Origin: Barthelona sp. PCE
Lineage: Eukaryota
Length of the DNA stretch: 64,000 bases
NCBI GenBank assembly: GCA_040285745.1
Contig: JAUFOR010000003.1
Span: 1,426,001 to 1,490,000, forward strand
Reading direction: 5' to 3'
The position numbers and the translations under genes were made by a program. Below the pieces are notes generated by a model. The model did no database searches. It saw only the letters and a program-made list of their open reading frames with translations, and was not told the DNA's origin. This document shows positions 9,511-52,552 of the stretch, one piece after another. Position 1 is the first letter of the stretch, and each line of letters starts with the position of its first letter.

Positions 9511-9612
9511 TTTTGCCTGAACTGTGTGATAAGACCCAACGTTGAAAAGAATTATAAACGGAATTACAATTCACTACCTTATTCTTTCAAATTTTTTTTA
9601 TAATATGGTTCT

Positions 9613-16879: not shown

Positions 16880-17065
16880 AACTTTGAGAAGTGAAAGATG
16901 GAAAATGTGTAAAAACGGGGTTAACATCTTTTGTTTTGGCTGAATATCCTCCAGCAATCATCCTTACCACAAATAGAAAAGTAATTCAAGTATACTGATG
17001 CTTTGATAGAGATTTTTTTTTACTGCACAGTTTTAACGTTAAGAATTTGTTTAGTAATGTAAAAC

Positions 17066-20000: not shown

Positions 20001-20893
20001 AGGTGCGCATGTACCCACACTTTGCCATTAACAATGGTCCCTCAACTCATCCTCTTTCACACGAGAAGGAGATCACTGTTAAGAAATGGTGGTGGACAAG
20101 CACTGCAATGGTGCCCACTTCTGTTGATGAACTGTTCCCTCCTCGTAAATCAATGGAGAACAAGCCTGTCATACTTTATGTTCGCGCTTCGGATATTCGT
20201 ATCAGTGACCAGTCACAGTTTATTAATCAGAGATTCATCATTGTTACTGACTCGCTCACGAACAAGGATCTGAAGCCTGCAGAACGTCATCGAATGATGA
20301 TTCCCGTTTTAGATTATGCGTATGAGATTAAGAAGGAGTTTCACGGAAACGTTGCGATCGAATCAGTCGTTGAGGCTATCAAACATGAGTATGAGCTTCC
20401 AGGTACGTTCACGGCATACAGTAGTTATATTGGTGGCAAGCTTCTCAAGAAGCAGCTTGATCCATCTTTGAAGCTAGTTGGTGTTGGTAATGATCTTTAT
20501 CAACCAATTGTACTCATTAACAAATCTGAACGCCCCAACATGGACAACTTCATTTGGACCGAGTTTTCGTTCTGCCGCATGGTGCTCTCCGACCGCGGGC
20601 TTGCCGTCGGTCACATTGGTCATCCATTTTTCTGCTGGGTGCCCCGTGATTATGATGTACTTAACTTTAAGCTATTCTTGGCTGCCCACTTTAATGTAAC
20701 AACAGCTTTGTTTGAGAATTGTCGTTTTGCAAAGCTGAGTAGATCTACGTATCAGAAGGAGTCTTGTTGGATTGATCAAGAGAGTAAGCCAATCACTTCC
20801 GTCTATAATGGAAAGCCTAATCAAATGATCGGCGTTGTTGTTTCATTTGAGAATTTATTCCAACATAACGCCGAATCCCTTGTCATTTACTAG
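17066..20893 (+). CDS. USP7/Ubp15-like ubiquitin-specific protease (MATH-like, USP, UBL-like regions); start may be ATG 17165
   Basis: GVGNQGATCYLNS, LTSSFGW, QHDVQE, LDGENQY, VHYGDVDSGHYY, AYMLAYIR. Confidence 0.88.
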   Translation: MVEKQPFRRYSFVSECFSVYFFTHLFLPFALFLMFTSEPNQSPYINELKHEFKIPVSRLILASSLKDSFVFSNKRFNLTVSSRMVPNHLSFFVEADFDIAPTERFETNLNLGLFNYVGREYIEIPLRLEFHSEKKSIGVPFFIPLDDIYHETVKGRKEQMFSRLSSEKNPGKFVSSNLEKFFTLKEKYIRDGSIYVRARLFDTTKPRYNNPTVPEMLEYIENMPEKLPLGVGNQGATCYLNSMVQTLYHVESFKDVIEDANIDPNAWGMSRRPVVLELRRLFKWLDRGFCAADTRGLTSSFGWSGEVNVQHDVQEFFTVLMGKLQEHYMNVAKAKLDELVEPSFQEIENIVRNNVFSSPVDDLFEGSFCSYLQCCDPDVPFFSANLDKFRSVSVPVKGCSSLKDSLRAISKPEVLDGENQYDTEDYGLQDVYKGQLFHKLPGVLMFHLQRIAYDWRADTITKDRSELKFDEEIDMKPFVLSRKNGRIIELCERHDVRKKLNKLDEVSQHDHRFSKEYFIENGYPDRNPDYSDVKTFSGEPPIVNKCTKYKLAAVIVHYGDVDSGHYYCYCSPLNDPNGQWMRFNDSRVTPVSRYEAMECNFGGNNTCGPRGEAYMLAYIRKDLLEAKGAEEEVYTPGDPIATTIDEVDHYRMMDFMYNKKTTPSFNVQVMQHPEGDYTRGLPPKKVVQSFKRFGDMTISDALTVDKQNLMLKSIYDNWLASYELLTTVAGDPQQFESMKPLSELKIENIAHHSIVKEGDEVEPTEILTKDLVLYGTKPLAIVQQSNSLESCAKLAEMQNRLANDFDELRFVPSSIEASQDPRVHQWRSPMRSVAGNIRLMSTTVLNPECSSFTELVPIKKFMDQVSFVGYIAVNVNIPIKQQISQSKHVSDGITVFVEGGPSIDDDYMHVPFKNTIYVITAYPSQYIQEIEHRNSHVSLELHDYAEHTKVLGDIRIPRTDNYEQLSSRVAEIVNVPSDQVRMYPHFAINNGPSTHPLSHEKEITVKKWWWTSTAMVPTSVDELFPPRKSMENKPVILYVRASDIRISDQSQFINQRFIIVTDSLTNKDLKPAERHRMMIPVLDYAYEIKKEFHGNVAIESVVEAIKHEYELPGTFTAYSSYIGGKLLKKQLDPSLKLVGVGNDLYQPIVLINKSERPNMDNFIWTEFSFCRMVLSDRGLAVGHIGHPFFCWVPRDYDVLNFKLFLAAHFNVTTALFENCRFAKLSRSTYQKESCWIDQESKPITSVYNGKPNQMIGVVVSFENLFQHNAESLVIY

Positions 20894-24721: not shown

Positions 24722-25252
24722 TAGCACTTAAAAGTTTCTCTAAGAAGCAATAAATAGTAGATACACAGTCATTAATATGGATGTCAATTTTTTTCGAGCA
24801 CTTTTTGCAAATTAAAATGAACCGGCAAGTGTTAAAGAACTTTTAGATCACTGATTTTAAGTTGGAGCCACGTGGTTTAGATATTAGGAATGTCAGCGGT
24901 ATATCATGCTTTATACTGAACAGACTTTTGACTTCAATAAGGCGATGAAAAATCACGTGCTTCAGTCGGTTTTTCTGCACTTATCATGCTCTATAGGCTC
25001 ATTATTAATGCGAAAACTCAAAAAACATCTCAAAAAAGGATTTTTTTATTTAAAATGTCAAATTCTAGAGATAAGTAGAATGACACCCAGATTTCACCAT
25101 CTAAATGCTCCACTGATAGGGTCATACATGTAGGAAAATGTCGATACGCAAAAAAGGAAGTTTTTAAACATGAAATTTCTATTTCATCCTCTTTCTTTCG
25201 GACTCGCACTGATTTTTTGTTTTAAAAAGAATCTACAAAACTTTATATATAT

Positions 25253-26461
25253 ATGCCAAGCATTTCTGACATGTCTGGGCTGATAGGCTATTCTCTCTTA
25301 TCAATCCTTGCTTCTTTCCTATGTTCTTTACTGGAATCGTCTCTACTTTCGGTCCCTTACTCATATGTTGTGAATTCTGCAGAAACAGGATCAAAGGCAG
25401 GAAAAAAGATGCTTAAACTGAAAGATTCTTTAGATAGACCTTTAGCAGCTATTTTAAGCATGAATACAATCGCACATACAATTGGTGCATCTGGTGTAGG
25501 TGCCGCAACTGGTGTTGTATTCGGAGAAAAGTGGGTCACACTTTCAAGCGCTATTCTTACTCTTGCTATGCTCAGTCTTAGTGAAATTCTTCCTAAAACC
25601 ATTGGTGCTAACTCATGTAAGAAGTTAATGGGATTCACAGGCACAACAATTAACATTTTGATTATTATTGTCTACCCCCTCGTGTGGTTGTGTGAGAAAC
25701 TGAGTAGTTGTCTTGGTGGAGAAGGTGAAGGCCACGGTGTTGTATCACGTGATGAGATCAAGACCATTGCTGATTTAGCGTTGGATGCCGAGCAAATCTC
25801 AAAGGATGAAGCTCAGTTCATTAAGAATATTATTCGTGTTACTGAAGTACCTATTGCTGATATTATGACCCCCCGTATTGTCTTAAAGTACCTTGAGGCC
25901 GATTCTACAGTTGGTGAGATCATCGAACAAGGTCTTATGCGTTATGCCCGTATGCCTGTTTTTGGTGAGACAATGGATCATCGCGTTGGTTGGGTACATC
26001 GTAATACCCTTCACGAATTGAACAGAGTTGGTAGAGGTGACACTTTAATTGGCGAAATCGCCCTCCCTGTAACAACCGTCGCCGAAACCGAGTCTGTACC
26101 AAAATGTTTCACAGAGATGCTGAAGAGACGTGAGCAAATGTTCATTGTTGTTGATGAATTCGGTGGTACTGATGGTTTAATCTCTATGGAAGACGTTCTG
26201 GAAAGCATTCTTGGTCTTGAGATCATGGACGAGTTTGATGATAACGAGGACCTTAGAGAGGTTGCTCGTAAGATGGCACAAAGCAGATCACAGAATGCTG
26301 AAATAAGATCAAGTCAAAAGAATCTGAGAAAGAATGTTAATACCACTGCTGTAGAAGATATTCAAGTTACTCTTGATGTCAACGATGAATTCGGTGGTGC
26401 TGCATTGTCCAGCACATCATCAATGACTGATACTCCCCTTATGCAAAATAATACGAAATAA
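25253..26461 (+). CDS. CNNM/DUF21 transmembrane plus tandem CBS domain protein (CorB/TlyC-like)
   Basis: SFLCSLLESSLLS, RPLAAILSMNTIAHTIGA, SEILPKTIG, DIMTPR, VVDEFGGTDGLISMEDVLE. Confidence 0.9.
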   Translation: MPSISDMSGLIGYSLLSILASFLCSLLESSLLSVPYSYVVNSAETGSKAGKKMLKLKDSLDRPLAAILSMNTIAHTIGASGVGAATGVVFGEKWVTLSSAILTLAMLSLSEILPKTIGANSCKKLMGFTGTTINILIIIVYPLVWLCEKLSSCLGGEGEGHGVVSRDEIKTIADLALDAEQISKDEAQFIKNIIRVTEVPIADIMTPRIVLKYLEADSTVGEIIEQGLMRYARMPVFGETMDHRVGWVHRNTLHELNRVGRGDTLIGEIALPVTTVAETESVPKCFTEMLKRREQMFIVVDEFGGTDGLISMEDVLESILGLEIMDEFDDNEDLREVARKMAQSRSQNAEIRSSQKNLRKNVNTTAVEDIQVTLDVNDEFGGAALSSTSSMTDTPLMQNNTK

Positions 26462-26521
26462 AGTTTCCGCTTTTTTTATTTTTACTCATTTAAATAATTA
26501 TTTTATGGTCTAAGTTTATGC

Positions 26522-29500
26522 ATGAAGAAATATTTTTCGTTCCCTACAATTTCAGAGGATGAACAAGAAGATCAAGTTGATTCTGCTGAAGTAGAACGTG
26601 TGTTTAACTCTGAAGAGTATTGGATAGGTGACAGCGATGCTATGGTTTGTTACGGGTGCTCACAGTACTTCTCTTTAGTGAAGAGAAGGCATCATTGTCG
26701 ACTTTGTGGAAGAATTTTTTGTTCCAATTGTAGTTCGAAATTTCAAATGTGGGACTTCAACATACGCTCATGTTTTGACTGCTATTCGGTATTTAAGCGT
26801 GGAAATCTTAATTTCAAAGAAGCAAAAAATTTGCAGAATTTATCTGGTCTAGATAGTGGACCTACGTTCCTTGAGCAACATACACACTTCTCACAAGCCG
26901 TTATTTGGTACGGAGGCACGCCTAAATCAGTGCACAAGAACGTGTTTGATATTACAAATCCTGTTTTAGGATTATCGCATTATCATGACAGGATCACACA
27001 GATAAGAGCTCTCACACACGGCTCTCGTTTGCTAGGTATGTTCCATCCTGAAATGTCGGTGGTCTCCTCCTCGTCAGTCAACACAATGATGAACGCGTGG
27101 CTTACTTCCCTTCGCTCCTCAAGGAAGGTGTTTGTTGAGGCAGCTATAGAGCGAATATACTCGTTTTTTACGCTGCTATTCACCTCACACGGACTCGATA
27201 TCAAATGTAGAAAACTTGCACAGAGCTTACATTCCTTTGTTGAGTCATACATGAGTCTATCGTTCAGGGAGAAGCAGACGTTCAGAGACCCGGCGTACAT
27301 AATGCCAACTCTGCGCACTGAATCTGCATGCGAACAGTCTGCCGCAAGCTTCACCTTCCACGATGGATTGTGCTTTAAGCACTTCCCTTTGTATATTCAT
27401 CAAGCAAAGCGTGTGGCACAGAGGTGTCTTCTGTATGTAGGATCTCTGGGTTGTGTAATCAATCGTAAGACAATGTTGTCAACTGCCAATATTTTTGACG
27501 CATCACAACATTTGTTATCATGCGCTGTTTCCGTCGCTAAACGCATTGCCGACCACGAAGTGGACATTGTGCTGCTGTCAGGCCGTATATCGACCGAAGT
27601 AGCCAATTTTTTTAGTGATAACAACATCATTGTCATACCAATGATTCCATTGCGCATCATTCGAATTATTTCTATATTGTCTGGACAACGGGCAGTTTTT
27701 AACGTTTGTGAGCTTAATAATGAGTTGGATTTCGTCCCGCTAGATTTCGAAACCAACTCTGATACATTTACAAGAATTCAGCACAGTAGCTGGAGCGCCA
27801 GGACCTTAGAATTGTCCTGCTTTGGACAGTTGCACTCCATTGCTGACGAGGCAGTTCATCTTGCGCTGCGTGAATTTCACAGCGCTTTGTCTATTAATGA
27901 ATTGTCAGTGGCGTTAGGATTTTCGATTTCACCAATGAATTTTTTGGCATTTCCGATGATTTTCGCCAAGGAATCTGTTTCTTCATCAGGGAGCCTCAGC
28001 AGGTTCTTTCCGTCCGCGCAGATGAATAATTTACCTGATGCACCAAAATTGAGCAGTGATTCAGTATCGCATTCGTTCCCACAATCAACGTACTATACAC
28101 TTCACCGGAAATCAACGCTTGATACTTTTTTCATGCCCAGTAACAGCATATTGCTCAGCACAGCAGATGTCATCAGCGTTAAGCGACATAAGAAACCAGA
28201 CTTTAAGCGATTGTTTAAGCAGTCGCTCAGTATGGCGCATGCATCGCTCAGCTCCGTCTCTTTCTTGTTCTCAATGAAGTGTACATCGCCGTTAGGACAC
28301 TGTACGCAGCCACAGTACCGTGTGATACATTTTGACGCCGAGTCCGACTGTTTGTTAGGAGAGTATGTGTTTGAAACATATTTGGCAGTTAAGGAAGGTA
28401 AGAAGTGTCAGGCACACGAGTTCGCTGGTAAGTCACTTGATCAGCAGCTGCAAGAAATTGTGTTCGACACACAATCCTTGCGAGAGTCACCATATCTCCA
28501 ACCGTGTTCAGGTGCAGATATCACACATCACACATCTGTCTTTTACTGCAACGACGTGGTCGTTGAGTGCCAGGTATTCCACCATACAGCAAGGTTGGTT
28601 AGCAGTGGGTGTCTGTATGCATGGATCGCCGATCACAGTGGCAGCATGACCTCCCCACCAATGAGAATTTCCAGCACGCTCTCGTTCGGTCGTTTCCTGT
28701 GCATGCTTTTCACACAGCCAACAGGGCAGCTGTTAGACATATTTAACATGAAGGATGCAGGTCGTTCATTGATGGGATGCAACATCTACGTTGGGTTTGA
28801 GGATATCGCAATTTGCTTCAGTGTAGACAAGTGCATCATATATGAGTTGAGTTATAACAAGCACATAACAGATGTGAGCGCGGTTCACACGTCTCAGCGC
28901 CTGGCAAAGGAACTTGAAACTATGTCTGCTTTGGGAAACGCAATTTATGAGGCTTTTATCAATAGTTTCCGCACACTCCTTGACGAAGACGTATTCATAG
29001 AGGAAAGCGTTGAACACACACAGCTACGGGACGATATCAAACAGTTGCAGAAGGAGCATAAGCGCTTTGGACATAATTTAAATGATATTGCTCAGAGACG
29101 ATCAATACTGGCTTTCAACAATGTGAGGGCGAATCTATTGAACGTTGTGCGTAATTGGCAGGCCAAATGTATCAAATATGTGTCCATAGGTAATCAAAGC
29201 GATCTTGTTAACATCACAACAAGGAAGTCTGCACCGTATGTCAATGTCAATTTCGTATCACCTTCGCTGTCACCCGTACAGTCCCCTGTTGAAGAGGTAC
29301 CACTGGATGACATGTTCAAGAGCGACTCACCGAGCGAGCTTGAGGGTGTTGATGTATCACCAATCCATCGCCCCACTCCGTTTACATTGGGCAGGGCACG
29401 GCGAACGCCATCACCTTTTGCTGGTATACGCAGTCTCGACATCAGATCTCAGCCATTTGAGCGTACAGTAACGCCTCCCGCACCACGTATAACTGATCCG

Positions 29501-30796
29501 GGAGAAGAGCTCATGACTGACTCAGATTCAGGATTTGAGATTGACATATCGACACTCACAAACAAATCGACAGATGTCCAGATTGTTGTCGAGGTCAATG
29601 ATGTCGGGGTATCAACGTTTTTCCCACCCTCCTTACATCTTACAATCCCTGATGCTATCACTCCTATGAGATTTGTTCCCATCAGAGAGGATGAGCCCAG
29701 TAGTATCATATCATGTGTTATTTCATCAACTCTTTACGAAGAGACACTGGCCAGTTTGAGCTCCTCATGTGGGCTTGCAGATCACCTGTACAACAGAGGT
29801 GGATCGCTCGATGCCAAGGAGAAATGCAAACTTCAAATGTTATACCACAATAGTGATATGGTCTCAGCACAGATTGTGCTGGAAAGTAAGAAACTTACAC
29901 GCTTCACTTGTATTGTTTACTTCCCTCTACAATTCGAGGCATTGCGAAAAGTGTATATGGGTGAGAATTCTGACTATATTGAGAGTCTTTCGCGCTGTAA
30001 CTCGTTACAGGCAATCGGTGGAAAATCAGGAGCTGAATTCTTCCGCACTCAGGATGGAAGATTCATCCTCAAAAGCATTAAGGGCATCGAGTTGGATTTA
30101 TTCTTAACGTTGGGACCGGCATATTTTGAATACATGGTTAGTGTTTTGTTTGGCGATGTACCTTCAGTGCTAGTGAAGATTTTAGGTCTGTACACAATCA
30201 CTTACAAAACATTTGACGGTCAAAATGTTCGTCTGAACTTGCTGGTAATGGAAAATTTCTGGTATCGACGTTCTGTTGATGTTGTATATGATCTGAAAGG
30301 ATCACTTCGGAACAGATATGCGCGTAATAAGATTGTTGATGATCGTGGAGAGATTAAATCTGTATTTTTGGATGAGAATTTAGTTGAAAACAATTTCCAT
30401 AATCAGCTTTTTACTTCTGCCCGATCCAAACGAATTTTTAATTTCGCAATTCACAACGATTCACAGTTTCTCATGGACAACAATGTGGTAGATTATTCGC
30501 TATTAATTGGAATTAACGAGGATAAACAGGAAATAGCAGTTGGTATCATTGATTATGTGAGGTCCTATACATGGGACAAGCGTGTTGAGTCTATTTTGAA
30601 GAGTTCAGGAATTTTTGGTGAGAGTGGCAAGCGACCAACAGTTGTACCACCAGAAATTTATCAGAAGAGGTTCAAAGATGCTCTTTGGAGGTATTTCATC
30701 GCACTTCCCAAGTCCACATTTCCACTACCACCATCACAGAACTTCTTAAACCCCGATAGCGAAGAAATTGACAGAGAGGTCCTTTCAATGAAGTAA
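26522..30796 (+). CDS. FAB1: Fab1/PIKfyve PtdIns3P 5-kinase
   Basis: N-terminal FYVE (RRHHCRLCGRIFCSNC); C-terminal PIPK domain with GGKSGA, YDLKGS, DYSLLIG, GIIDYVRSYTWDK. Confidence 0.92.
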   Translation: MKKYFSFPTISEDEQEDQVDSAEVERVFNSEEYWIGDSDAMVCYGCSQYFSLVKRRHHCRLCGRIFCSNCSSKFQMWDFNIRSCFDCYSVFKRGNLNFKEAKNLQNLSGLDSGPTFLEQHTHFSQAVIWYGGTPKSVHKNVFDITNPVLGLSHYHDRITQIRALTHGSRLLGMFHPEMSVVSSSSVNTMMNAWLTSLRSSRKVFVEAAIERIYSFFTLLFTSHGLDIKCRKLAQSLHSFVESYMSLSFREKQTFRDPAYIMPTLRTESACEQSAASFTFHDGLCFKHFPLYIHQAKRVAQRCLLYVGSLGCVINRKTMLSTANIFDASQHLLSCAVSVAKRIADHEVDIVLLSGRISTEVANFFSDNNIIVIPMIPLRIIRIISILSGQRAVFNVCELNNELDFVPLDFETNSDTFTRIQHSSWSARTLELSCFGQLHSIADEAVHLALREFHSALSINELSVALGFSISPMNFLAFPMIFAKESVSSSGSLSRFFPSAQMNNLPDAPKLSSDSVSHSFPQSTYYTLHRKSTLDTFFMPSNSILLSTADVISVKRHKKPDFKRLFKQSLSMAHASLSSVSFLFSMKCTSPLGHCTQPQYRVIHFDAESDCLLGEYVFETYLAVKEGKKCQAHEFAGKSLDQQLQEIVFDTQSLRESPYLQPCSGADITHHTSVFYCNDVVVECQVFHHTARLVSSGCLYAWIADHSGSMTSPPMRISSTLSFGRFLCMLFTQPTGQLLDIFNMKDAGRSLMGCNIYVGFEDIAICFSVDKCIIYELSYNKHITDVSAVHTSQRLAKELETMSALGNAIYEAFINSFRTLLDEDVFIEESVEHTQLRDDIKQLQKEHKRFGHNLNDIAQRRSILAFNNVRANLLNVVRNWQAKCIKYVSIGNQSDLVNITTRKSAPYVNVNFVSPSLSPVQSPVEEVPLDDMFKSDSPSELEGVDVSPIHRPTPFTLGRARRTPSPFAGIRSLDIRSQPFERTVTPPAPRITDPGEELMTDSDSGFEIDISTLTNKSTDVQIVVEVNDVGVSTFFPPSLHLTIPDAITPMRFVPIREDEPSSIISCVISSTLYEETLASLSSSCGLADHLYNRGGSLDAKEKCKLQMLYHNSDMVSAQIVLESKKLTRFTCIVYFPLQFEALRKVYMGENSDYIESLSRCNSLQAIGGKSGAEFFRTQDGRFILKSIKGIELDLFLTLGPAYFEYMVSVLFGDVPSVLVKILGLYTITYKTFDGQNVRLNLLVMENFWYRRSVDVVYDLKGSLRNRYARNKIVDDRGEIKSVFLDENLVENNFHNQLFTSARSKRIFNFAIHNDSQFLMDNNVVDYSLLIGINEDKQEIAVGIIDYVRSYTWDKRVESILKSSGIFGESGKRPTVVPPEIYQKRFKDALWRYFIALPKSTFPLPPSQNFLNPDSEEIDREVLSMK

Positions 30797-32441: not shown

Positions 32442-35400
32442 ATGTGTAAAAAAATGCGAACATGGACTCTACAGCAAACTTTTGTTTTTGCAAATTATTC
32501 TTCTTTCACAGCATTTGATGCTCACAGTACATGTATGATCCTATACGAGTGCCTGTCAAGTATCAAAACATTCTTGGAAACAAGTAATATTGTTGAAATT
32601 GGGCTTCTTCGCGATTTTATACTTTCCTTAAGATCCCAAACAGTTCCACTCTCGAAGGAGTGTCTGGAATTGTTCACATCTATCACTGATGTTGCATTCC
32701 AGATAAGCGATTCTTTCTTTGTTGAGATAGTTTTCCGTCTACTGTTTCTTCAGCTCAAAACATCTCAAACAACTCTTATACCCCTTATACACCAGCTATA
32801 CCATCTGCGTCCCTTCTCATTAGCACTGATCGACATTGAGAACTCTAATGATTTGTGTAAGAGACTGTTATTTCTTGTTTCTCGGTATTCAAACAAGATA
32901 ATTGCATGGTTTTTGTGTATTATTGTGGCTTCCAAACAGTTTGATAATTTCAATCTATTGAATATGTTCCCGTCATCTGTCTTTGCTGAAATGGATTCAA
33001 CTTTTATTCTTTGGGCGCTCAGGCAGCACATGCCCGCCACAGCCCCCTCGCCCGTGGGCGTGATTGAGCGTACCAAGCGTGCAAAGGCGTTCTCATGGTT
33101 GGATACACTGGAGTGCGGTGCCGTGTTAGACTATCTTCCATCTCTAATAGTAATGGGGTATGTACCCTCACCATATCGTCGCACCAAGCTGCTTGAGGAG
33201 GCAACGATCAGCGATCACCCGCTGCTTCCATCTCTGTTGTTGAGATTCTATGATGAACCAATGACAGAGGAGGAGCTTTCTTTCTTTGAGTGGCAGCCAA
33301 CGTTACTACAGATAACATCACCAGTAATGAAGAACTTTGAGCGGTTGAAGGAGTCTAAACCAATTGTGCAAATGTTACTATCGACAAATGCCGAGGATGT
33401 TGTGGACATTAAGCAGATATTGATGATCGAACGCCTTCTTATTGCCACAAGGCTGGACGAATCAATGCAGGAGACCATAGGCCAGCTCCATCAGCTCCTC
33501 GCTACACTGCCTTTGGACCCAGCAAAAGTTCAACACTTCTTGAACGTTGACTCACAATTGTTAGCAGTTGAGGTTCCATCCAGCGAACAGCCGACATTGG
33601 TGTTGGAGCAATCAACTCCACCTACTGCTGTCGCCAATACACCAGTTTCGATTGTTACGGAAATGGAGGACTCGATGATGAGCCTTGTCACAATGGCATT
33701 AGACTCTTGCTCACCTTGCTCACCCTCTTCTGAGAAGGGTGTTACCGATCTAATTTCATCGTTTGTCGAGAAGCTTCCGCCACAATCGCATCGTAAAAGG
33801 CCAAAGTCTTTCAGACGTATGGAATCTGCCCATCCTCAGAACGCTTCACCTGATGAGATTTTCATCACAAAGAGTTGTACAACTGCTAATATCATTGGGC
33901 AGCTCCGCCGATGTACATATGGGATTCAGAAGGAGGCGTTTTACGCAGCTAGGCTCATTAATAACGAAGAGTCAATGCACTCGTTACGTGTGGTCCTCAG
34001 GCGCGTAACGACCAAGTTCAAGTTCAAGGTAGTTGACGCCTTAGTTGGTCTCGTATGCGCCATTGCTGCTGCTGGTGTGACTTTTGACACACACTTCTCC
34101 AACGCTCTGAGCGGGTTGGCGTTCATCACGCTCTTTCACGAGACTAAGGTGAGTGGGCAGCTTCTCAGCTGTGTTAAGGATAACGTTTCTGACATCGCAC
34201 TGTTCCCAGCGGTGCGCGTGAAGAACTCATCGTCGCTTGGTGCTATGATCTTTTGCAGGTCATTCCTCGATATTTGCAGGAAATTACGTGTACTTCCATC
34301 GCGTGAGTCTCTCTCCCGCATCTGTTCGGTCATTTTAGACCTATTATCCCTTAAGCAGTCGGGTGCACCCACCCTATGCACGTCTTTTGCTGAGTTTCTT
34401 ATTGAAAACCATGAACAGTGGAACGAGGATATCGCACAGGTACTCTACACATACGCTCTACACATCGTCTCGGAGTATGATATCAGCGACCCGTCTTTGA
34501 GGATGATGGAGGATATGGTAGGCTTCCCAACAGCGTTTTCACTTTCGCACAAGAATGCTGCGGTCCTACACGTGCACTTAGCATGGCTCTTGTCTCAGGT
34601 GTATGCCGATGTTGTGGTCACACTGCAATTCTTCTATTCATCTGCTCTGATGACCGTTTTGTTCGAGTTATCGGACGAGCACACTTCAGTTCATCCACCT
34701 TCGTTTGCCAAGTCCAACCTTTCCGTTGATTCTGCTGCTTGTCGGAACCACGCCGCTTACTGGCTCCTTACTGGGCTTGTCCAATTCGACCCATCGTTGA
34801 CGAGCTCAGATGCTGTGCGGCCGAACGTTTCACATTATCTTCGTTACTTACTATCCAAATCTGACGTAGATTTGAGTCCGCTGGGTAAGATTGACATTGG
34901 AGTTCGTCTCTTCTTTTTCTCTATTGCATGTGGTTATCACCGTTCGTTTGAGAAACATCTGTTTGAGTATTTTGAAGCATTTTACAAATTTTCTGAGGAT
35001 TTAAAGACACCTTTTGTATCATTTTCGAGCGATTTCCGCTTGAAAACAATTGGTCGTGCATTTTCTATTGTTATATCTGAACTTGAACCGTATCACGAGA
35101 GCGTTCCAGCCAACAAAATTGCCTCAAATCAACTTTCGACACTTAATCGTCTAACTATCCGTAGGCACTTAACCAGCACGCCAAATGCTCTAAAACATGA
35201 GAGCAAGTCGAGAGCGGAGCCAGTACGAAAGAAAATGCAGGCGATTCTTGCGTTTTTCGTGCACAGTCATAAGCGGCACATTATGCAGCTATTCGGACAT
35301 GGAGGCGACCTTGGGCTCCTTATGGACTTCATTGATAAGTCAGAGAAGACAGTTGTTGACTGTCCTGGCTTAACAGATTTCATGATGGTCATAGACTCTC

Positions 35401-36440
35401 TTCAAATTTTGAACATTAAGCTCCCTGTGAGAGATGATATCCCAGCCCTGTCGAGAAACGGCCTTACAACGATTGCAAAGCGCAGGAAAGAGATGGAGAC
35501 GGTGAATGCTAAAGTTGTGAGGGTTGCTGCACAGTTTTCAGTACAGGATATGATTGATCTTTGCAAAAACACGCACGTAGGCCATCTTCACAGGCTGGTG
35601 ATCACAGAGCGTGTTGGTGGCACAGTTGCGGACGATACACTGAAAGACAAATTATTTATTTTTGCTCCTTTGATTCGCGAACATTTTTTATGCGTGCACA
35701 AGACAGGTTATCATATTCTGCGCCCCGTATGCGATTCATTTTTACTGGGAAGGATCATGGCACTGTATGTTGAAACTCAGATTAATTTGGGAATTGAGTG
35801 GCCTAGTGAGCTGTACGGTTTGTTATGCGGTCTTTCTTTCCACCCAGAAGATGTGCTGCCGTTTGACCCCGAGCTACACATACGCATGGACTGGGTTGAC
35901 AACAACGATTTAGCTGAATTGGGTCTGCGATTTGAGGATGGCACGCCAGTTTCGGATCTCAACAAGAAGAGGTACATAATGCAATTCTCTCTAAAGCGAT
36001 TCACAGATTTTTTCCACGACTATGAGTTGTTGGTTAGGGGCTTCAGATCTGAATTGCAATCAGTTCCATTACTTCCAACGGAACTTAGTTCTGTGCTAAA
36101 TATCCAGGATGGTTTCGACATTGAAAAGTTGATGGATATGTGTGTTGTAGATGCATCTCTGTGCTCGAACAAGGAAAATGTGCAGACTCGTGTCGACTGG
36201 ATTCATAGATTCATGTATGAATCCGACTTTGTCATGCGGAACACATTGCTCCGTTTTATAACTGGTTCAACATTGGTACCTGTCACAGGATGGCGATTAC
36301 ACCTCACAGATGCAAAGAATAGACTTCCAGAGAGTAGAATATGTACAAACGCTCTAATTTTGTCTGATTTTGAAGATTATGATTCATTTTATCAGCATAT
36401 GATGATTGCTCTTGTTGATTGTCAGGGTATGCAGTTATAA
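32442..36440 (+). CDS. Large protein with divergent C-terminal HECT E3 ligase domain
   Basis: VSDLNKKRYI, LLRFITGST and LPESRICTNALIL (compare HECT LPxAHTCFNxLxL). Start codon uncertain. Confidence 0.75.
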   Translation: MCKKMRTWTLQQTFVFANYSSFTAFDAHSTCMILYECLSSIKTFLETSNIVEIGLLRDFILSLRSQTVPLSKECLELFTSITDVAFQISDSFFVEIVFRLLFLQLKTSQTTLIPLIHQLYHLRPFSLALIDIENSNDLCKRLLFLVSRYSNKIIAWFLCIIVASKQFDNFNLLNMFPSSVFAEMDSTFILWALRQHMPATAPSPVGVIERTKRAKAFSWLDTLECGAVLDYLPSLIVMGYVPSPYRRTKLLEEATISDHPLLPSLLLRFYDEPMTEEELSFFEWQPTLLQITSPVMKNFERLKESKPIVQMLLSTNAEDVVDIKQILMIERLLIATRLDESMQETIGQLHQLLATLPLDPAKVQHFLNVDSQLLAVEVPSSEQPTLVLEQSTPPTAVANTPVSIVTEMEDSMMSLVTMALDSCSPCSPSSEKGVTDLISSFVEKLPPQSHRKRPKSFRRMESAHPQNASPDEIFITKSCTTANIIGQLRRCTYGIQKEAFYAARLINNEESMHSLRVVLRRVTTKFKFKVVDALVGLVCAIAAAGVTFDTHFSNALSGLAFITLFHETKVSGQLLSCVKDNVSDIALFPAVRVKNSSSLGAMIFCRSFLDICRKLRVLPSRESLSRICSVILDLLSLKQSGAPTLCTSFAEFLIENHEQWNEDIAQVLYTYALHIVSEYDISDPSLRMMEDMVGFPTAFSLSHKNAAVLHVHLAWLLSQVYADVVVTLQFFYSSALMTVLFELSDEHTSVHPPSFAKSNLSVDSAACRNHAAYWLLTGLVQFDPSLTSSDAVRPNVSHYLRYLLSKSDVDLSPLGKIDIGVRLFFFSIACGYHRSFEKHLFEYFEAFYKFSEDLKTPFVSFSSDFRLKTIGRAFSIVISELEPYHESVPANKIASNQLSTLNRLTIRRHLTSTPNALKHESKSRAEPVRKKMQAILAFFVHSHKRHIMQLFGHGGDLGLLMDFIDKSEKTVVDCPGLTDFMMVIDSLQILNIKLPVRDDIPALSRNGLTTIAKRRKEMETVNAKVVRVAAQFSVQDMIDLCKNTHVGHLHRLVITERVGGTVADDTLKDKLFIFAPLIREHFLCVHKTGYHILRPVCDSFLLGRIMALYVETQINLGIEWPSELYGLLCGLSFHPEDVLPFDPELHIRMDWVDNNDLAELGLRFEDGTPVSDLNKKRYIMQFSLKRFTDFFHDYELLVRGFRSELQSVPLLPTELSSVLNIQDGFDIEKLMDMCVVDASLCSNKENVQTRVDWIHRFMYESDFVMRNTLLRFITGSTLVPVTGWRLHLTDAKNRLPESRICTNALILSDFEDYDSFYQHMMIALVDCQGMQL

Positions 36441-37938: not shown

Positions 37939-38359
37939 GGGTCATTTGTGTATTGAAATTCGAAAGAAGTCTAATAGAATAAAGCGCAAATAGTTTGAAT
38001 TGTTAGTGTTCTGTTGTTGTCGGGGAATATACACATCATCAAGTATGGGGGAAACAGCTGGATTTACTGTTTTGAGTAACATAGGCATGCAACGTTTTTG
38101 TTATCTATACTTTCTTATTTTTATTTCAATTGACAAAGCTAAATGTGTATTTGATTTAGGTATATACCACAAAAAGCGGACAAAAAGTTTCAATTCTGAA
38201 GTTAAAAGCTGATGAATATATTATTTTTTGAGGTTTGATGCAGTTTCATATGCTTGAATTACTTTTGTATTCCTTTTGAACGACAATTTCACAAATAGGA
38301 AAACTATATGTGCTGTATTCGCATATATACAATTTTTCATATATTGGGACGCATTCTGC

Positions 38360-39997
38360 ATGTCATTTTTGTTTAGAGGGAAACAAGAAGACGATTCCGA
38401 TGAGCGGGGCCCCATAGTAAGAGAGCTAACGAATTACGGTAATACTTGTTATCTGAATTCATTGTTTCAAAGTCTGTATAGCCTCGACATCATGAGATAT
38501 ATGTTCAACTCTCTAGACAAGCACTTTGAAATGTACACAAATCATCTTGATCCAACTGATCGAGAGTTTTTCAAGGAATTCATTAATTTTTACAACGCTT
38601 TAGGTCGTAGACAGAATCTACGACGAGAGGTACACCCAAAGAAATCATTTTTACGTGTTTTACAGAAGAAACTCGGAGTTGAGTTCGAGATTTATCAGCA
38701 GCAAGATACGATGGAACTTTTTCACTCAATTAATTCAATTTTTGAGGGCATTCTTGGGTCTACACTCACGTCACCCAATGAAAATCTGCCCACAGTTAAA
38801 ACAAGTATCTTTTCGTTTCCATTTTTAGGATTCATGAAGAACGTGGTTGAGTGTGACTCATGCAACCACCAAACTGTATCATTCGACAGTTTTTTTGACA
38901 TTTCTTTGCATTTAGAGTATACGAAGAAACGAATTTTTCCTTTTCCCTTTCCCTTCAAAAAGAAGGAATGGCCGGGTCTTGAACGATGTCTGGAGCTGCA
39001 TTTCAACAAGGATGAGCTTGAGGGGAAGGTTTGCGACCATTGTGAATCAGAAGATAAACACTCTATATCACATTTGATTTCTTCTTCATTTAAGCTCCCT
39101 ATCGTGTTAATGATTCACATCAAGCGCTTTTCTTTCAACAGGTCAATGTCTAAGATTGGCGCACACATACCATACCCGATGGAACTGAACATGCAACAGT
39201 TTTTTGACAGTAAGGTTGTGAACAACCCATTATATGCATTGAAGGCGGTTGTTGTTCATCAGGGAGGGTCTCATTTCGGTCATTTCGTTGCGTACATCAA
39301 AAGAGATGACGTTTGGTTTTTTACAAGTGACCGTGTTATAAAGGAAGTGACAGAAGAACGAGTTTTATCCCAACAAGCATACGTTTTGTTCTACGAACAG
39401 GTACAGAAAGCGCCTTTTGATGATCCAGTCTTTACATTTAAATCTTTTGATCAAAAGAAGAAGAATGTTGACTTCCCTTCAACTACGTCTGTTTTGAGCC
39501 TTTCAGAGCACGCCATGCGCGCATATTGCATAGAGTCATACAGAGGATTCAGACAAGGATGCCTTTTGCAATGTGAACATGGAAGACTTGTAAGAGAGAA
39601 TCTCTTAAAGCAGTTTGCAGTTTTTGTTGATGAGAAGCGTGGTATACCGTTGGAGGGCGTGTGCAAAGAAGAGGTTTGTATGGACAGGGCTCTCTTAGAT
39701 TGGGAAGTCAAGTTTGTTTCCCAGTTTGAGCTGGATCACTCTCTTTTATATTGTGCTATTGACAGTGACTGGGTGATTGCGTGGAGAAAGTACGTACGCA
39801 ACGACGGAGAGCATCCAGGAGCTATTGCAAACAATAATTTAGTCATACACAATCAGGTAATACCAGGGATGTCGTTAAGCACTCATTATCGCATGATTAG
39901 ACCCAATGTTTTTTATGCACTGCAGGCTCTGTATGGCGGGGGACCATGTGTCATTTGTAATAGTATCGATATATATGATTTGAAGGAGATACATTAA
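38360..39997 (+). CDS. Ubiquitin-specific protease with C-terminal DUSP domain
   Basis: LTNYGNTCYLNS, QQQDTME, VHQGGSHFGHFVAY; DUSP-like W..W...HPGAIAN...LYGGGP. First ATG is at 38360. Confidence 0.87.
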   Translation: MSFLFRGKQEDDSDERGPIVRELTNYGNTCYLNSLFQSLYSLDIMRYMFNSLDKHFEMYTNHLDPTDREFFKEFINFYNALGRRQNLRREVHPKKSFLRVLQKKLGVEFEIYQQQDTMELFHSINSIFEGILGSTLTSPNENLPTVKTSIFSFPFLGFMKNVVECDSCNHQTVSFDSFFDISLHLEYTKKRIFPFPFPFKKKEWPGLERCLELHFNKDELEGKVCDHCESEDKHSISHLISSSFKLPIVLMIHIKRFSFNRSMSKIGAHIPYPMELNMQQFFDSKVVNNPLYALKAVVVHQGGSHFGHFVAYIKRDDVWFFTSDRVIKEVTEERVLSQQAYVLFYEQVQKAPFDDPVFTFKSFDQKKKNVDFPSTTSVLSLSEHAMRAYCIESYRGFRQGCLLQCEHGRLVRENLLKQFAVFVDEKRGIPLEGVCKEEVCMDRALLDWEVKFVSQFELDHSLLYCAIDSDWVIAWRKYVRNDGEHPGAIANNNLVIHNQVIPGMSLSTHYRMIRPNVFYALQALYGGGPCVICNSIDIYDLKEIH

Positions 39998-40249
39998 ATT
40001 TGATCAAATATTTTTGCATTCGTTTAAAAGCCGCACACTGGTCATATCATGCGTTCTATCGGTGGATTGACCCGAGACAAGTATGAGTATGATGGAAGAT
40101 TGATTTTTGTTATAGTAAATTTGTAGTTTAGATTTTGTTAATGAAGAGATTTTGAATGTGCTAAATTCTAAGTTTGAACCGTATTTTAAAACTTTGTCTT
40201 TGATCCTTTGTACCAAAAATTTAGTTTTACAATACTTACTCTTTTACAC

Positions 40250-42284
40250 ATGCCTCGTCGTAGAGACAATGGTTTTCCTGTCAATCAGGGCTTTTATTGC
40301 AATCCCTTGGGTTCAAATGGGTTCAGATTAATGAATATGAATACTGATCCTGTTGTAAGCACTTTTTCTTTTGATTGCGATGATTTTTCATTAGGAATTG
40401 ATATTCAGAAGCGCACTGTTATACATGTCCACATTGATGAGTGTTTTGGAAACACAAAGCATTCTCTTTTTTTCTTTAGGTGTATGTTTGATCCGAAAAC
40501 GTATTATATTATGGAAGACACCAAATTTCAAAGCAGAAAAACGAAGAAGGTAATATTTTTGGATTTGGTTGATGAAGAACTCGTTTTTTCAGAAGTGAAG
40601 AGCTTTCATTACACCAATAGAAATCAAGAAATGGTTATGTTTCTGGACAGGGATACATCATACTGGATAGAATACGGAAGGATAACAGTTATCAGGTGGG
40701 ACGAAAAGGGCCAGATGCATGGAGTTGAAAATATTGTTACCAATTTCTATTGCCATACACTCGTATCAAATGTATTATTTTATTATATTAATGGGTCTAT
40801 AGCGTTTTCTCGATTCGATAACGAGGCTATTGACCGAAAAGAACTGGAAAATGTAGCTTTTGATTTCGACGTCCGTCCTGACATGAGAATGGTACAGAGC
40901 TTAATGCACCACAATGCGTGCTATTTGTGCAGGACAGAGGATTGTACAGAAGTTTGATTTCACCGATTTATTTCCTATGCTCAAGGAGTTAAGGATTAGC
41001 ATTGAAAGATTTCATATATGGTATCTGTCTGCTGAGCGTAAAGAAGCCATGTGTGTTATAGTGTCAAACGAAATTGCACACTTTTGTGTCTTCAAGAATG
41101 ATGAAGTTTCAGCTTTTCCGTTTATCTTTCCCAGGAGGACCAGTGCAGCACTTCCCCCGTTTTCAACTGAAATGGATCATAGAAGGTTTTTGACACGCAT
41201 GTATAGTGTTGTAGATTGTGAGTTTTCCAAATTTGAAAGATTTTATTCATTAAAGGATGTTATTTTGGAATGCAATGACTTGAAGTCAAGCCAATTAGGT
41301 ACATTCATGAACAGCATATTTTTTAAGACAAATTTTTTCCAGTTTGTATATAATTTTGTGGATAACATTATCTTTTATCAGAAATATAAAATTGATACAA
41401 ACCATGCATTCTATTATCGTTATATTGCAAAGATGCATGATTACGTAAAGAATACACTGAGAAGTGTGGACAATTTTGGTGTAGAAATGCAGATAATTGA
41501 TGTTGATTCCTTCAAGCTTGGAGAATATCCAGTTTATAATATTTTAACAGGGGCCAGCAATGTGTTACTCTTCAAAGAAGAACATGTGTATTGGTGGAGC
41601 TCGTATTGGAACGATGAAGTTGAGTATTTGAAGATATTGCGAACTTCAATACATACTGAGCAGACGGAATTGATAATCACTGTTGAGGAAGAAATCCCTG
41701 AAATAATTTACTGTGATTTGCAAAAAATCGTTTTGCAGTTTAGAAATTGTGCCAGGTGTTTTGAATTGAATGGCGGAGTCTGGGAGCTTACACGGGAATT
41801 AAATGAAAGGAAGGCATACATTAATCCTTATGCAACTGAGCTTTCTGTACAACGAACTAAGAAAAAGCATTTCTTTCTATGTGATGCTGATGAAGAGCTC
41901 AAAGTTCAACATAGGTCAGGTCTTTTCATCAAATTCCTATCACCACGCATTGTCTTGTTAGATTCAGGTATCTTCCGTATTACGAAGAGATGTCGTCTCA
42001 CAAACTTAATAGATTTCTCAGAGAATAATTTTACAGTAGCAGATGCAAACTGTTTCCAAACGCAGAATACTCTTACAATATTTGTGATATTGGATAGCAT
42101 GATTGTTCACCGCCGCTATATGTTCAACGATACGCATATTATCAGTTCGGAAGTGCTCGATAGTTCTCTGCAAGAATGGCTGACACATGCAGAGTTTGTT
42201 GAAGTTGATGTTTTCAGAGATCTGGGCGATCATGAGTCTTCAGGAAATGTTGTTGGGCAGATAGATATAAGAGGTGTTAATTAA
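40250..42284 (+). pseudogene. Lineage-specific beta-rich protein gene split by one +1 frame change (pseudogene, sequencing error or recoding)
   Basis: ORF 40250..40957 overlaps ORF 40914..42284 in the +1 frame with similar composition; AATAAA at the distal stop. N-terminus resembles the ORF at 61965. Confidence 0.55.
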
Positions 42285-48907: not shown

Positions 48908-49237
48908 AATCGGAATTTAAGACACTGTTTTTATTTAAAAGAAAGAGTATGATGTAATTGAGAACATTTTTTTTTAATGGGTATTTGTATGACGCGCATT
49001 ATTTACTTTTGATACTTTTTACAGTTTTGAAGACACCAATGAGCTGTCAGTAACTGGTTATTTTTTTGTTAGAAGTGGTCAGCAACAGTAAGCAGGGAAT
49101 CTGTTATTACAATGATATCTCTGTATTCCACGTTTTACAAGCTGCTGACTCGATAAGTATAGATATTGCGCTGTTTGAAGCGATTAATCGCAGTTTTTAT
49201 AGTGCACATTTTTTTTCACCCCCTTTGCATCATTACA

Positions 49238-49792
49238 ATGAACTCTCAATTGAATCAAAATCAAATCCCCTCCACATCCGCCGTCTTTGGTAAAAACAAA
49301 ATCCTCGAACTGATTGAAGAAGGTTCCATCACAATTACCCCATATAGTCCTGAACTCATCGGGCCTGCTTCAGTTGATCTGAAGCTTGGAAACGAGTTCA
49401 GGTATTTCAATATGCAACCAAGCACCATTGACCTCAACAGTGATGTCAATTATAAGGATTACACCGAAAAGATTCATGTAGCAGATGGTGAACCATTTGA
49501 GATCCCCCCCAAAACACTTGTTCTGGGTATCACCAAGGAGAAGATCAGTTTAAGCCCCGAGATCTGTGGATTATTGGAGGGACGTTCAAGGTTCGCTAGA
49601 ATGGGACTCTTTGTACACGTAACAGCAGGATTTATGGCACCAGGAATCGAGAACCATCAGGTGCTTGAAATATTTAACGCTAGTCCCACCACAGTTCGCG
49701 TATATCCTGGAACCCCTATTTGTCAGTTTATCTTTATGTCATGTGAAGGTGCTGATAAGTATCGTGGAAGTTGGGCTAACCAAGAGCTCTAG
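49238..49792 (+). CDS. dcd: dCTP deaminase (trimeric dUTPase superfamily), 184 aa
   Basis: PASVDLKLG, LGITKE, LEGRSRFARMGL, TAGFMAPG, LEIFN, ICQFIF, YRGSWANQ. Confidence 0.88.
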   Translation: MNSQLNQNQIPSTSAVFGKNKILELIEEGSITITPYSPELIGPASVDLKLGNEFRYFNMQPSTIDLNSDVNYKDYTEKIHVADGEPFEIPPKTLVLGITKEKISLSPEICGLLEGRSRFARMGLFVHVTAGFMAPGIENHQVLEIFNASPTTVRVYPGTPICQFIFMSCEGADKYRGSWANQEL

Positions 49793-49994
49793 AATAAACA
49801 TTTTTTTTTTGACACATAAACAATATTTTGAGTTTTACAGAAGACCCCAGTTTTTGCAAAAAAATGATAAAGAATACTAGGGTCATGCAAAATAAGAAAC
49901 TGATTAATATCTGGATTATCGTCCTATCTAGCTGTAATTTTGATGAGAGTGAAATCATAGAGCATAACTAAAAAAAAACCACTAAGCTCACTCA

Positions 49995-52278
49995 CTATCT
50001 TGCAGAACTAGGACGGGAAGCAACAAGACTATCTTCATAGTACTTATAGTTATTGCTAATACTCTCCATGATTTGTAAAGCACGTTTTTCTTCAGGGAAA
50101 ACCTTGACAAATGCCTCAAAAGTAGGTTCAACAACAAATTTGATAAAGTTAAACTGACACTTAGGGAGCGAAGCAGTATCTCTATCACAGAAAGGTGAAA
50201 CTTGGAGACCAAGTGACTTCTCTTGATCACCCTACTTACCGAACTCTTCCATAACATGCTGAGCCCACCTATACGCAATAGGTCTAGGACGTGCGGGGTT
50301 TGAGATATCAGCCACTTTCATTATCATCTGGGTAAGCAGCAGCCTGTCAGCCTCCTCAGTGAAGACGTACTCGTCCATACCCTGGAGACGAGTCTTAAAG
50401 CTACCAAGTATATCGAAATGTTTGGCCATGTCAGTAGCCAGAACGAGATCAATGACATGCTTACGGAACGTCATCTGCTCTTCCCGTGGCATGGAAGACA
50501 GGATGTTCATGTTCTTATCACTTAGAACACCCATAAAGACTGCACTGAGATGATGATTCTCGAGGACTGAACGATCATTGTAAACGAGGGCGAGGTGTGT
50601 CTGCTTGTTGATCTGGAATTGGTTTGTCGTTCCAGGGTGACCAACATCATGGATGACAGCGGAGAAAAGAAGCGCGAAAATCTCGAGATCCGTTAATCCA
50701 CGTTCGAGACCGCATGACGTCAACAAGAAATGTACGCATTGAAGAACGTCAGCTGCGTGTACGCGGGAGTGATATGGGTTCTCGACTTTGTACGCACTCT
50801 CAATCGCAATCAAGAAATTACGTAAAGTGGTATCGGAAATGCCAAACTTTGATGGAATATCGTGGTACAAAAAGATTGCGTAGCCGACAAACAAGAGCGG
50901 CTTCTGCGTCGACTCATCAATGCGGTGGGCGCTAAAGTTCCATTCCTTTAGATTCTTAGCAAGGTCACCATACGAAACTTCCGTCTTCTCAGACTGGCTC
51001 ATCATTCGTGATACACGAGTAATGACTGCGAAATTGGTCATACGGTTACGCGAAGGCTCTCCAAGTGTTGTACCGCCGTTTGTAGGTGAATTGAGAGAAG
51101 GTGATGACGACTCAAACTTCTTGTTTGCAAAGAGAACATTCATTTCTCCGAGCCATCCACTCAGCTCCTCATCGTTCATGTTGTCCGCATGTGAGATGAT
51201 AGGGTTGTGAAGACGATCACTGAGTGAAAGCTCAGTGACGACGTAGTCGATAATAGCGATGTGTTCCTTACTCAAAGGAGCATCCTGTTTCAGCGCCTTC
51301 AGGAGCGCAAGGACCTTGGACATAGGTGTTTCTACCTTGTCTTCGCTATGTACGTAACGTTGGATCTGATCTTCAAGTGCTGCGTTACGCTTCTGAAGAC
51401 GGAGCAGTTCCTGCTTTGATTCAGAGATTGTATCAACGTAACGCTGGACGAATGACTGGATGTTGAGGAACAGTACACCAAGAACGGTGATACACACAAA
51501 AATCGTAAGCGATCTTGACCAGCTGATGGGCTCAGTTAGAGGCAAGCCCTTATATGCGTCGTTGGACATTGCAGACGTATCCTGATAGAAATAGTCCATG
51601 AACAAAAGGCAAGAAGAGTAAACAACAATTGTTAGGAAAATATACAACGAAATTTTTCTCTTGAGCTCGGGATCATTAGATTGAAGGTGGATGGAGCACA
51701 CACAACTGAAGTAGATCAAGGCTACAGTCGCATGTGCCTCGCGTGCTGCGATCGTGATGATTGCGAAAGGGAGTAAACTCGCAAAAAGAGGAAAACTTGA
51801 GTAGGGATTAAAATATAAACGAATACGAGCAATACAAAAGTTAACAAAGAAAGCAAAGAGGTACGGGATTGCCGTACTGTAGCGTACATTAGATACCCAC
51901 TCACTGATTTCAGCGGTAAAAATGATGAATAACACCAGAGCATTAACTGCAATGGACTAAAGGTTAGGGTTTTGCAACGGCGTGCGAGTAGAAGTCTTGT
52001 AGACGTATTCAAACGAATGAAGTTCAATATTATTGAACAAAACAAAAAAAGATCTTCTTTCATTGTGAATAATGATGCATTGCCCAAAAATTACCATGTG
52101 TACGGCATGGGTGCCCGTATCTTAGTAAAAAATTGAAAAGACAAAATTACAGCAAGGAAAAATTGTTTAATCGCGTGTTCGTCTAAAATCTTCTATTCGA
52201 CAGCTGGAAACATACCTGAACTTGCAGTGGCCCTGTGATTGAAGGTCTAGACTGAGACTTTTTGATACTATTAGTCAT
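49995..52278 (-). CDS. Membrane-anchored class I cyclic nucleotide phosphodiesterase; exons 52278..52216 and 51956..49995; in-frame TAG at 50232..50234
   Basis: N-terminal TM helices and coiled coil; NPYHSRVHAADV, IHDVGHPG, VLENHH, LATDM, ADISNPAR, EEFGK*GDQEK, SPFCDR, CQFNFI. Confidence 0.88.
51957..52215 (-). other. Spliceosomal intron of the PDE gene, 259 nt, phase 0
   Basis: GTATGT...CCCTAACCTTTAG joins an ATG-initiated 21-codon exon (MTNSIKKSQSRPSITGPLQVQ) in frame to the main ORF, which has no early ATG. Confidence 0.87.
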
Positions 52279-52552
52279 TGAAATGGTATTGTACGTTAAA
52301 GCAAGTTCTTGAACTATTGAAATTCGCAAATAGATGTGCGGATCCATTTATGTCGAGTGTAAAGACTTAATTTGTGAAATTGTATCAGGAGTTATGCACC
52401 AAAAACAGTTCACTATATTACACATGTTTTTCATATAACTATATACTGAATATTGTCTGTATTATGCATAATTGCTGCATTGTGCGGAACCATATTTTCA
52501 AATGCGAATTCTACTAAACTTTTCAGAGCAGGTTATGTTGAATGCAAGTAGT

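Follow-up and report, generated by a model that had tools for sequence, protein, structure and literature searches.

The gene for a PDE4-like, membrane-anchored phosphodiesterase (PDE) in Barthelona sp. PCE carries an in-frame TAG at the codon for a Gln that is otherwise invariant in its catalytic domain. This TAG is probably genuine, a nonsense allele of the sequenced culture that arose from CAG recently in evolutionary terms. We infer that the assembly has the right base, that the mutation happened recently and that the shortened PDE has no activity. The lesion is most likely of an ordinary kind: one nonsense codon that cuts a PDE4-like gene for a membrane-anchored protein. Coordinates refer to the window, that is, the whole 64,000-nucleotide (64-kb) stretch of DNA that was analyzed. 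The features of the gene are as follows.

52347-49995, minus strand: PDE4-like gene of Barthelona sp. PCE, two exons, membrane-anchored product
52216..52347, minus strand: exon 1, 44 codons, ATG at 52347-52345, from the GenBank model P0002 (start MDPHIY, ...PLQVQ joined to SIAVNA) and the sequence
51957..52215, minus strand: intron, 259 nt, junction implied by P0002 and read in the sequence
50235..51956, minus strand: exon 2 as far as Lys574, 574 open codons, from the ORF reading, Pfam and phmmer
50076..50774, minus strand: match to PF00233 (PDEase_I), residues 395-627 of P0001, spanning the TAG (Pfam, E 1.6e-85)
50232..50234, minus strand: in-frame TAG at the invariant Gln of the EFxxQGD motif, from the sequence and alignment
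49998..50231, minus strand: 78-codon tail with the last catalytic-domain helices, including the codon for the substrate-pocket Gln (50156-50154) and a Phe, by homology
49992..49997, minus strand: tandem terminators TAG TGA closing the full-length frame, from the sequence

The part of exon 2 up to Lys574 encodes a hydrophobic, multi-pass N-terminal region and a coiled stretch, together with most of the catalytic PDEase_I domain and its HD motifs for metal binding. Around the site, the minus strand reads GAA GAG TTC GGT AAG TAG GGT GAT CAA GAG AAG. A product that stops at the TAG has 618 residues, and one in which the TAG is read as sense has 697. The stop-to-stop frame is 100% identical to the GenBank entry 'hypothetical protein PCE1_001514 [Barthelona sp. 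PCE]' (P0002, 618 aa), the C-terminus of which (...MEEFGK) ends at the in-frame TAG. The intron of the PDE gene starts with GTATGT and ends with CTAAC, two bases and TTAG. An in-frame intron of 138 nt in a PP2A-like phosphatase gene (825-962, plus strand) has the same start and the same arrangement at its end, such that a branch-like CTAAC sits right at the 3ʹ splice site in both introns seen in the window (825-962, plus strand, and 51957-52215, minus strand). An apparent in-frame TAG before the PP2A-like ORF, at 960-962, is the 3ʹ end of that 138-nt intron rather than a stop.

Homology runs through the TAG without a break. With the TAG read as X, the frame matches Pfam profile PF00233 from position 1 to 235 of 238 (E 1.6e-85, with 287 bits where the cut-off is 24.8). 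In a phmmer search of the PDB, in which PDE4D and PDE4B were the best matches (E 3.5e-72), the TAG is aligned, ungapped, with the Q in PDE4D's EEFFRQGD stretch. We aligned 62 of the 119 other proteins listed, these being part of the best 120 of 351 matches, a set that includes the GenBank model of the same gene; that model was left out of the alignment, as were many near-duplicate vertebrate PDE1 entries, chosen by eye. The column of the TAG is Q in all 62 homologues, and the next two columns are G in 62/62 and D in 61/62. Residues H396, H400, H436, D437, H440 and D550, which we take from PDE4 structures to be the metal ligands, occupy invariant columns and are all kept in the Barthelona PDE. 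Four further invariant columns, G576, E579, F604 and P611, lie in the tail and are also kept. The tail contains Q601 (Q in 57/62 homologues) and F604 (F in 62/62), presumably the purine-recognizing Gln and the Phe clamp of PDE4. Hence, the substrate-pocket Gln and Phe clamp of a class I PDE are present in the gene, but only downstream of the TAG, and the frame is interrupted inside the catalytic domain at 50232-50234. By descent, the gene is a member of the class I PDEs (PF00233, PDE4-like), with an activity that is only putative.

The nearest homologues among the listed matches share 39–40% identity with the Barthelona PDE. The closest of these with the full architecture, a EukProt transcript (P0003), is 39% identical over 98% of the query and has Gln at the site. 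A skoliomonad homologue (P0005) also has Gln at the TAG position, and a stop at this point is therefore not conserved. No other PDE from Barthelona sp. PCE is among the 120 listed of the 351 matches, and paralogues may exist. Two codons before the TAG is a second unusual state, Gly573 (GGT, 50238-50240), at a column where the 62 homologues have F (38), Y (16), W (6) or L (2). Together, Gly573 and the TAG place two unusual states within three codons of a domain that otherwise resembles the consensus.

The gene shows no other sign of decay. Among the 34 columns of the catalytic domain that are at least 95% conserved, Barthelona departs from the consensus at one, where the median for the other sequences is 0. 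At the level of at least 90% conservation, 39 of 40 columns are at consensus, and the single departure equals the median of the other sequences. At the level of at least 80% (n = 51), there are two departures and the median is 3. The TAG is a departure at every level of conservation, and N397S is added at the 80% level. Mean identity to the 62 homologues is 43.5% for the tail (residues 576-627) and 41.8% for the part before the TAG (395-574), a comparison of little use for dating, since in a tail of only 234 nt neutral divergence of a few per cent would go unnoticed. On its own, the 78-residue tail matches PDE4B (E 1.2e-9), and the chance of 78 open codons at the stop-triplet frequency of this window is P ~0.016. 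The kept consensus, and a tail that resembles the homologues no less than the preceding part does, argue for a young change, and the gene is, as far as its sequence indicates, not an old pseudogene. With the gene so well kept, a null allele must be very young, or the allele is not null.

The preliminary description of this locus had placed the TAG at the conserved Gln of the QGD motif, followed by an undecayed 78-codon tail and TAG TGA. The letters are exactly as it gave them, and the comparison with orthologues that it had suggested returned Gln in every aligned sequence. The tail likewise proved to be open from 50231 to 49998 and to be closed by terminators at 49997-49992, with the undiminished identity and the PDE4B match given above. 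It had also predicted that termination at the TAG would give an inactive enzyme. The confinement of Q601 and F604 to the tail agrees with this prediction, which draws on known class I PDE biology.

TAG is a normal stop in this window. The stop codons of the 33 other long ORFs are TAA (19), TAG (9) and TGA (5). A G-gamma gene of 74 residues (PF00631, E 1.8e-6) ends with a CaaX box, CFCL, followed directly by TAG, and one ORF ends with CQLL followed by TAG-G, which is the stop context of the PDE. In the phospholipase B gene and one UCH gene, the TAG comes four residues after full-length Pfam domains; across dcd, phospholipase B and UCH, the distance from the end of the Pfam domain to the terminating TAG is 4 to 17 residues. 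When each of the 33 ORFs was read for 80 codons past its stop, with stops as X, and compared with Pfam, no domain crossed a stop in any of them (0/33), a result that is informative for the 19 ORFs with any Pfam match and blind for the other 14. The 33 ORFs comprise 17,060 codons, of which 603 are Gln, such that the PDE is the one in-frame TAG case in ~17,700 codons. A variant code in which UAG is Gln would be recognized by many in-frame TAGs at conserved Gln positions and by a lack of TAG terminators; in the 64-kb window we found a single such TAG, and TAG ends 9 of the 33 long ORFs. Hence, as the preliminary description had also maintained, TAG is a genuine terminator elsewhere in the window and the code is not globally changed. 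Within the window, TAG is not read differently.

Judged by coordinates against the ORF list, the remaining 15 pairs of ORFs separated by a stop appear to be upstream of a start, or to share their place with a long ORF on the opposite strand or in a different frame; in the pairs at 9601 and 23922, one segment is the other strand or frame of a neighboring gene. Past the stop of the gene for CNNM there is a FYVE match, but it comes from the following gene, in the same frame after two TAA stops. These two genes, for a CNNM/CBS transporter-like protein (25226-26461) and a FYVE-PIP5K (PIKfyve-like) protein (26498-30796), both on the plus strand, are separated by TAA, 11 codons and TAA, and we saw no sign of their fusion.

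How might the allele have arisen, and what would it do? We propose that a C-to-T change turned CAG into TAG, and that the resulting allele is either fixed or one of two. Only two single transitions can create TAG; CAG to TAG is one of them, and CAG accounts for 16 of the 23 Gln codons in exon 2 and the tail. Since one transition suffices and CAG is the prevailing Gln codon, a TAG at a Gln position is no hint of recoding. Ribosomes would terminate at the PDE TAG as at any other TAG. The 618-residue product would be without the final helices of the catalytic domain and, with them, the Gln and Phe that recognize the nucleotide, and would be inactive. Because the substrate-pocket Gln and Phe lie only past the TAG, the truncated enzyme is predicted to be dead, a step that rests on what is known of class I PDEs. 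At most, the background of near-cognate misreading, which at UAG often inserts Gln, might yield traces of full-length PDE.

The genomic context bears on whether such a loss is plausible. The Barthelona sp. PCE genome has 10.2 Mb in 8 contigs and encodes 5,064 proteins, and is described by its authors as the smallest known for a free-living eukaryote (PMC11316075). Given a genome of this size, ongoing gene loss appears plausible. On the other side, if Barthelona sp. PCE has no other class I PDE, a null allele would leave it with no cAMP/cGMP breakdown of this kind, which argues for residual expression.

The first alternative is that the TAG is an artefact of assembly or polishing, such that the true codon is CAG, the gene is intact and no molecule carries the TAG. 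We regard this as unlikely. The backbone was an ABruijn assembly of 66x Nanopore reads of R9.5 chemistry, which was corrected with Nanopolish and then, via Unicycler, with 308x Illumina reads (PMC11316075). A Nanopore backbone and the lack of any other defect in the PDE gene are what an artefact would predict. Furthermore, among the matches listed, protein collections gave no independent copy of the sequence, either near in length or in a shorter length class: a search for shorter near-identical fragments returned 48 matches, the best with 45% identity, and none from Barthelona sp. PCE. A metagenome scan with the PDE protein gave 141 pattern matches, none of which encodes a relative, and one with a 27-nt pattern around the TAG gave no matches. 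However, with 308x Illumina polishing after Nanopolish, a substitution error in unique sequence is unlikely. Within the 64-kb window, the 34 nt around the TAG are unique, and the site is not a homopolymer; the change is a clean in-frame substitution, unlike the typical residual errors of long-read assemblies, which are mostly indels in repeats. A heterozygous site would appear in the assembly as one allele.

The second alternative is functional decoding of the UAG, either by programmed readthrough or by a partial, genome-wide reading of UAG as Gln by a suppressor or strong near-cognate tRNA-Gln, with a useful share of the 697-residue enzyme as the outcome. The TAG lies exactly at an invariant Gln, and every conserved residue past it is kept. 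Furthermore, the misreading of UAG most often inserts Gln, Tyr or Lys, and the UAG of Moloney MLV gag-pol is read only as Gln, as described in a review (PMC13517186); a code in which UAG is Gln arose in the sister group Fornicata, in Iotanema spirale (PMC9161772), which suggests that the lineage may be prone to UAG reassignment. In addition, convergent genes in the window usually end 9–37 bp apart, and the PDE tail is therefore at least not old junk. Nonetheless, several observations argue against functional decoding, and we consider it improbable. As a terminator, TAG serves 9 of the 33 long ORFs as well as the G-gamma gene with its CaaX end, in one instance with the TAG-G context of the PDE; the 33 ORFs hold no second case; and ARAGORN found no tRNA genes in the 64-kb window. 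The stop is conserved in 0 of the 62 homologues.

Signals for readthrough were also absent from the positions where we looked for them. Shuffled sequences fold as well as the 141 nt that surround and follow the TAG (z -0.08). In a simple search for an H-type pseudoknot starting 5–12 nt past the stop, the best score was reached by 265 of 500 shuffles, and the best nearby hairpin, with 6 bp and 17 nt downstream, was reached by 55 of 500. The bases after the TAG, GGUGAU, to our knowledge match none of the leaky contexts (CARYYA, CUAG), and a purine at +4 is a strong termination context. Hence, of the marks of programmed readthrough, a known leaky context, a stimulatory structure and a stop conserved in orthologues are lacking; coding conservation past the stop is present, and a young nonsense mutation predicts the same. 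Readthrough in the absence of signals is ~1e-4 to 1e-3 in yeast (PMC13517186). With Gln among the insertions at UAG, such background misreading makes traces of full-length PDE conceivable, and no more. On balance, recoding has only two points in its favor: the otherwise perfect gene and the evolution of a UAG=Gln code in the sister group.

A particular form of such decoding is ambiguity, in which a tRNA-Gln inserts Gln at a useful share of UAG codons while UAG ends most genes, as an 'ambiguous intermediate' toward the UAG=Gln code of Iotanema. We think this very doubtful. If it were true, Barthelona would make full-length PDE in a lower amount, which might be regulated. If a suppressor tRNA or more TAGs in frame at Gln sites came to light, they would mark a stop codon in transit to sense, and such a transit would adjoin several completed UAG/UAR-to-Gln reassignments in neighboring lineages.

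U-to-C editing that restores CAG in the mRNA would explain the intact tail behind a genomic TAG, and is extremely improbable: we know of no nuclear editing of this type in metamonads, and the GenBank model that stops at the TAG belongs to a set built with RNA-seq support, according to the genome paper, the main text of which contains none of the terms 'stop codon', 'genetic code', 'readthrough' and 'pseudogene' (PMC11316075). Among the matches listed by a literature search on Barthelona and readthrough, phosphodiesterase, an in-frame stop or a suppressor tRNA, none was a Barthelona paper. The preliminary description had listed readthrough, editing and position-dependent decoding as ways to switch between truncated and active PDE, and had rated a recent CAG-to-TAG allele or a base-call error as at least as likely. 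The latter pair has become the better reading, whereas the three decoding routes found no support in any test run.

Several other routes around the TAG were considered and rejected. An intron is suggested by GGTAAGTAG, which resembles a 5ʹ splice site, and by a branch-like CTAAG followed by TCAG at 50164-50154. However, removal of the resulting 86 nt shifts the frame into an immediate TAA and loses invariant residues, and the homologues align without a gap. Excision of 8 or 9 nt would shift the frame or leave the protein short of three residues. Ribosome hopping is known from phage T4 gene 60; here, the invariant G, D and E would be lost in a hop from AAG to the AAG 15 nt further on. Frameshifting at the TAG is rejected because the same frame is homologous on both sides.

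The PDE gene is convergent with a dCTP-deaminase-like gene (dcd) on the plus strand (49163-49792; PF22769, E 3.4e-43). The gap between the two is 202 bp if the tail is included and 439 bp if it is not. The dCTP-deaminase-like family (PF22769) is mostly prokaryotic, and the gene may have been acquired by lateral transfer. Other convergent pairs in the window end 9–37 bp apart (14376/14390, 20893/20903, 36440/36478, 42284/42303 and 58186/58202), and one pair (56003/55967) overlaps; this spacing is extreme compaction. Two long plus-strand ORFs without a Pfam match, 40190-40957 and 40905-42284, share ~50 nt in different frames; this may be a pair of closely packed genes or a single gene that has an intron or a frameshift. 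The window also has three UCH genes (14390-16957, minus strand; 17063-20893, plus strand; 38258-39997, plus strand) and one HECT ligase gene (32442-36440, plus strand) within 26 kb.

What does the TAG mean for the use of this genome? Should it prove to be a plain nonsense allele or an error, the consequence is for annotation, with PCE1_001514 standing in GenBank as a truncated model. Counts of genes for cyclic-nucleotide signaling in the 10.2-Mb genome should be read with this in mind, since the PDE may be dead or mis-called.

Comparison with known systems helps to place the Barthelona gene. The membrane-region PDE4-type class I PDEs, such as the 'cAMP-specific phosphodiesterase' of Tieghemostelium lacteum (P0004), have PF00233 with all of the metal-binding His and Asp residues, as does the Barthelona PDE, and P0003, P0004 and P0006 have the hydrophobic N-terminal half in common with it, over 93–98% of the length. 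Unlike those enzymes, the Barthelona PDE has a frame broken by the TAG, and Gly573 in a column that in 62 of 62 homologues is F, Y, W or L. UAR=Gln codes are found in hexamitid diplomonads and the oxymonad Streblomastix, and the nuclear code of Iotanema spirale (Fornicata) offers the likeness of a metamonad with TAG at the Gln position of a conserved protein. In those metamonads, however, in-frame TAGs are frequent and TAG is no terminator, whereas Barthelona has a single case and uses TAG to terminate ORFs. Moloney MLV's gag-pol junction resembles the PDE site in that a UAG is followed by G and Gln is the amino acid needed. There, readthrough is driven by an 8-nt spacer and a pseudoknot (PMC13517186). 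In contrast, the Barthelona PDE has no downstream pseudoknot or stable structure, is a cellular gene, and has a stop that is not conserved in its homologues. The closest likeness is to the ordinary nonsense alleles of reference or laboratory strains of microbes, in which CAG has become TAG in a gene that is intact and has an open and homologous frame downstream. Such alleles are private to the assembly of one strain, and the Barthelona TAG is known from one strain.
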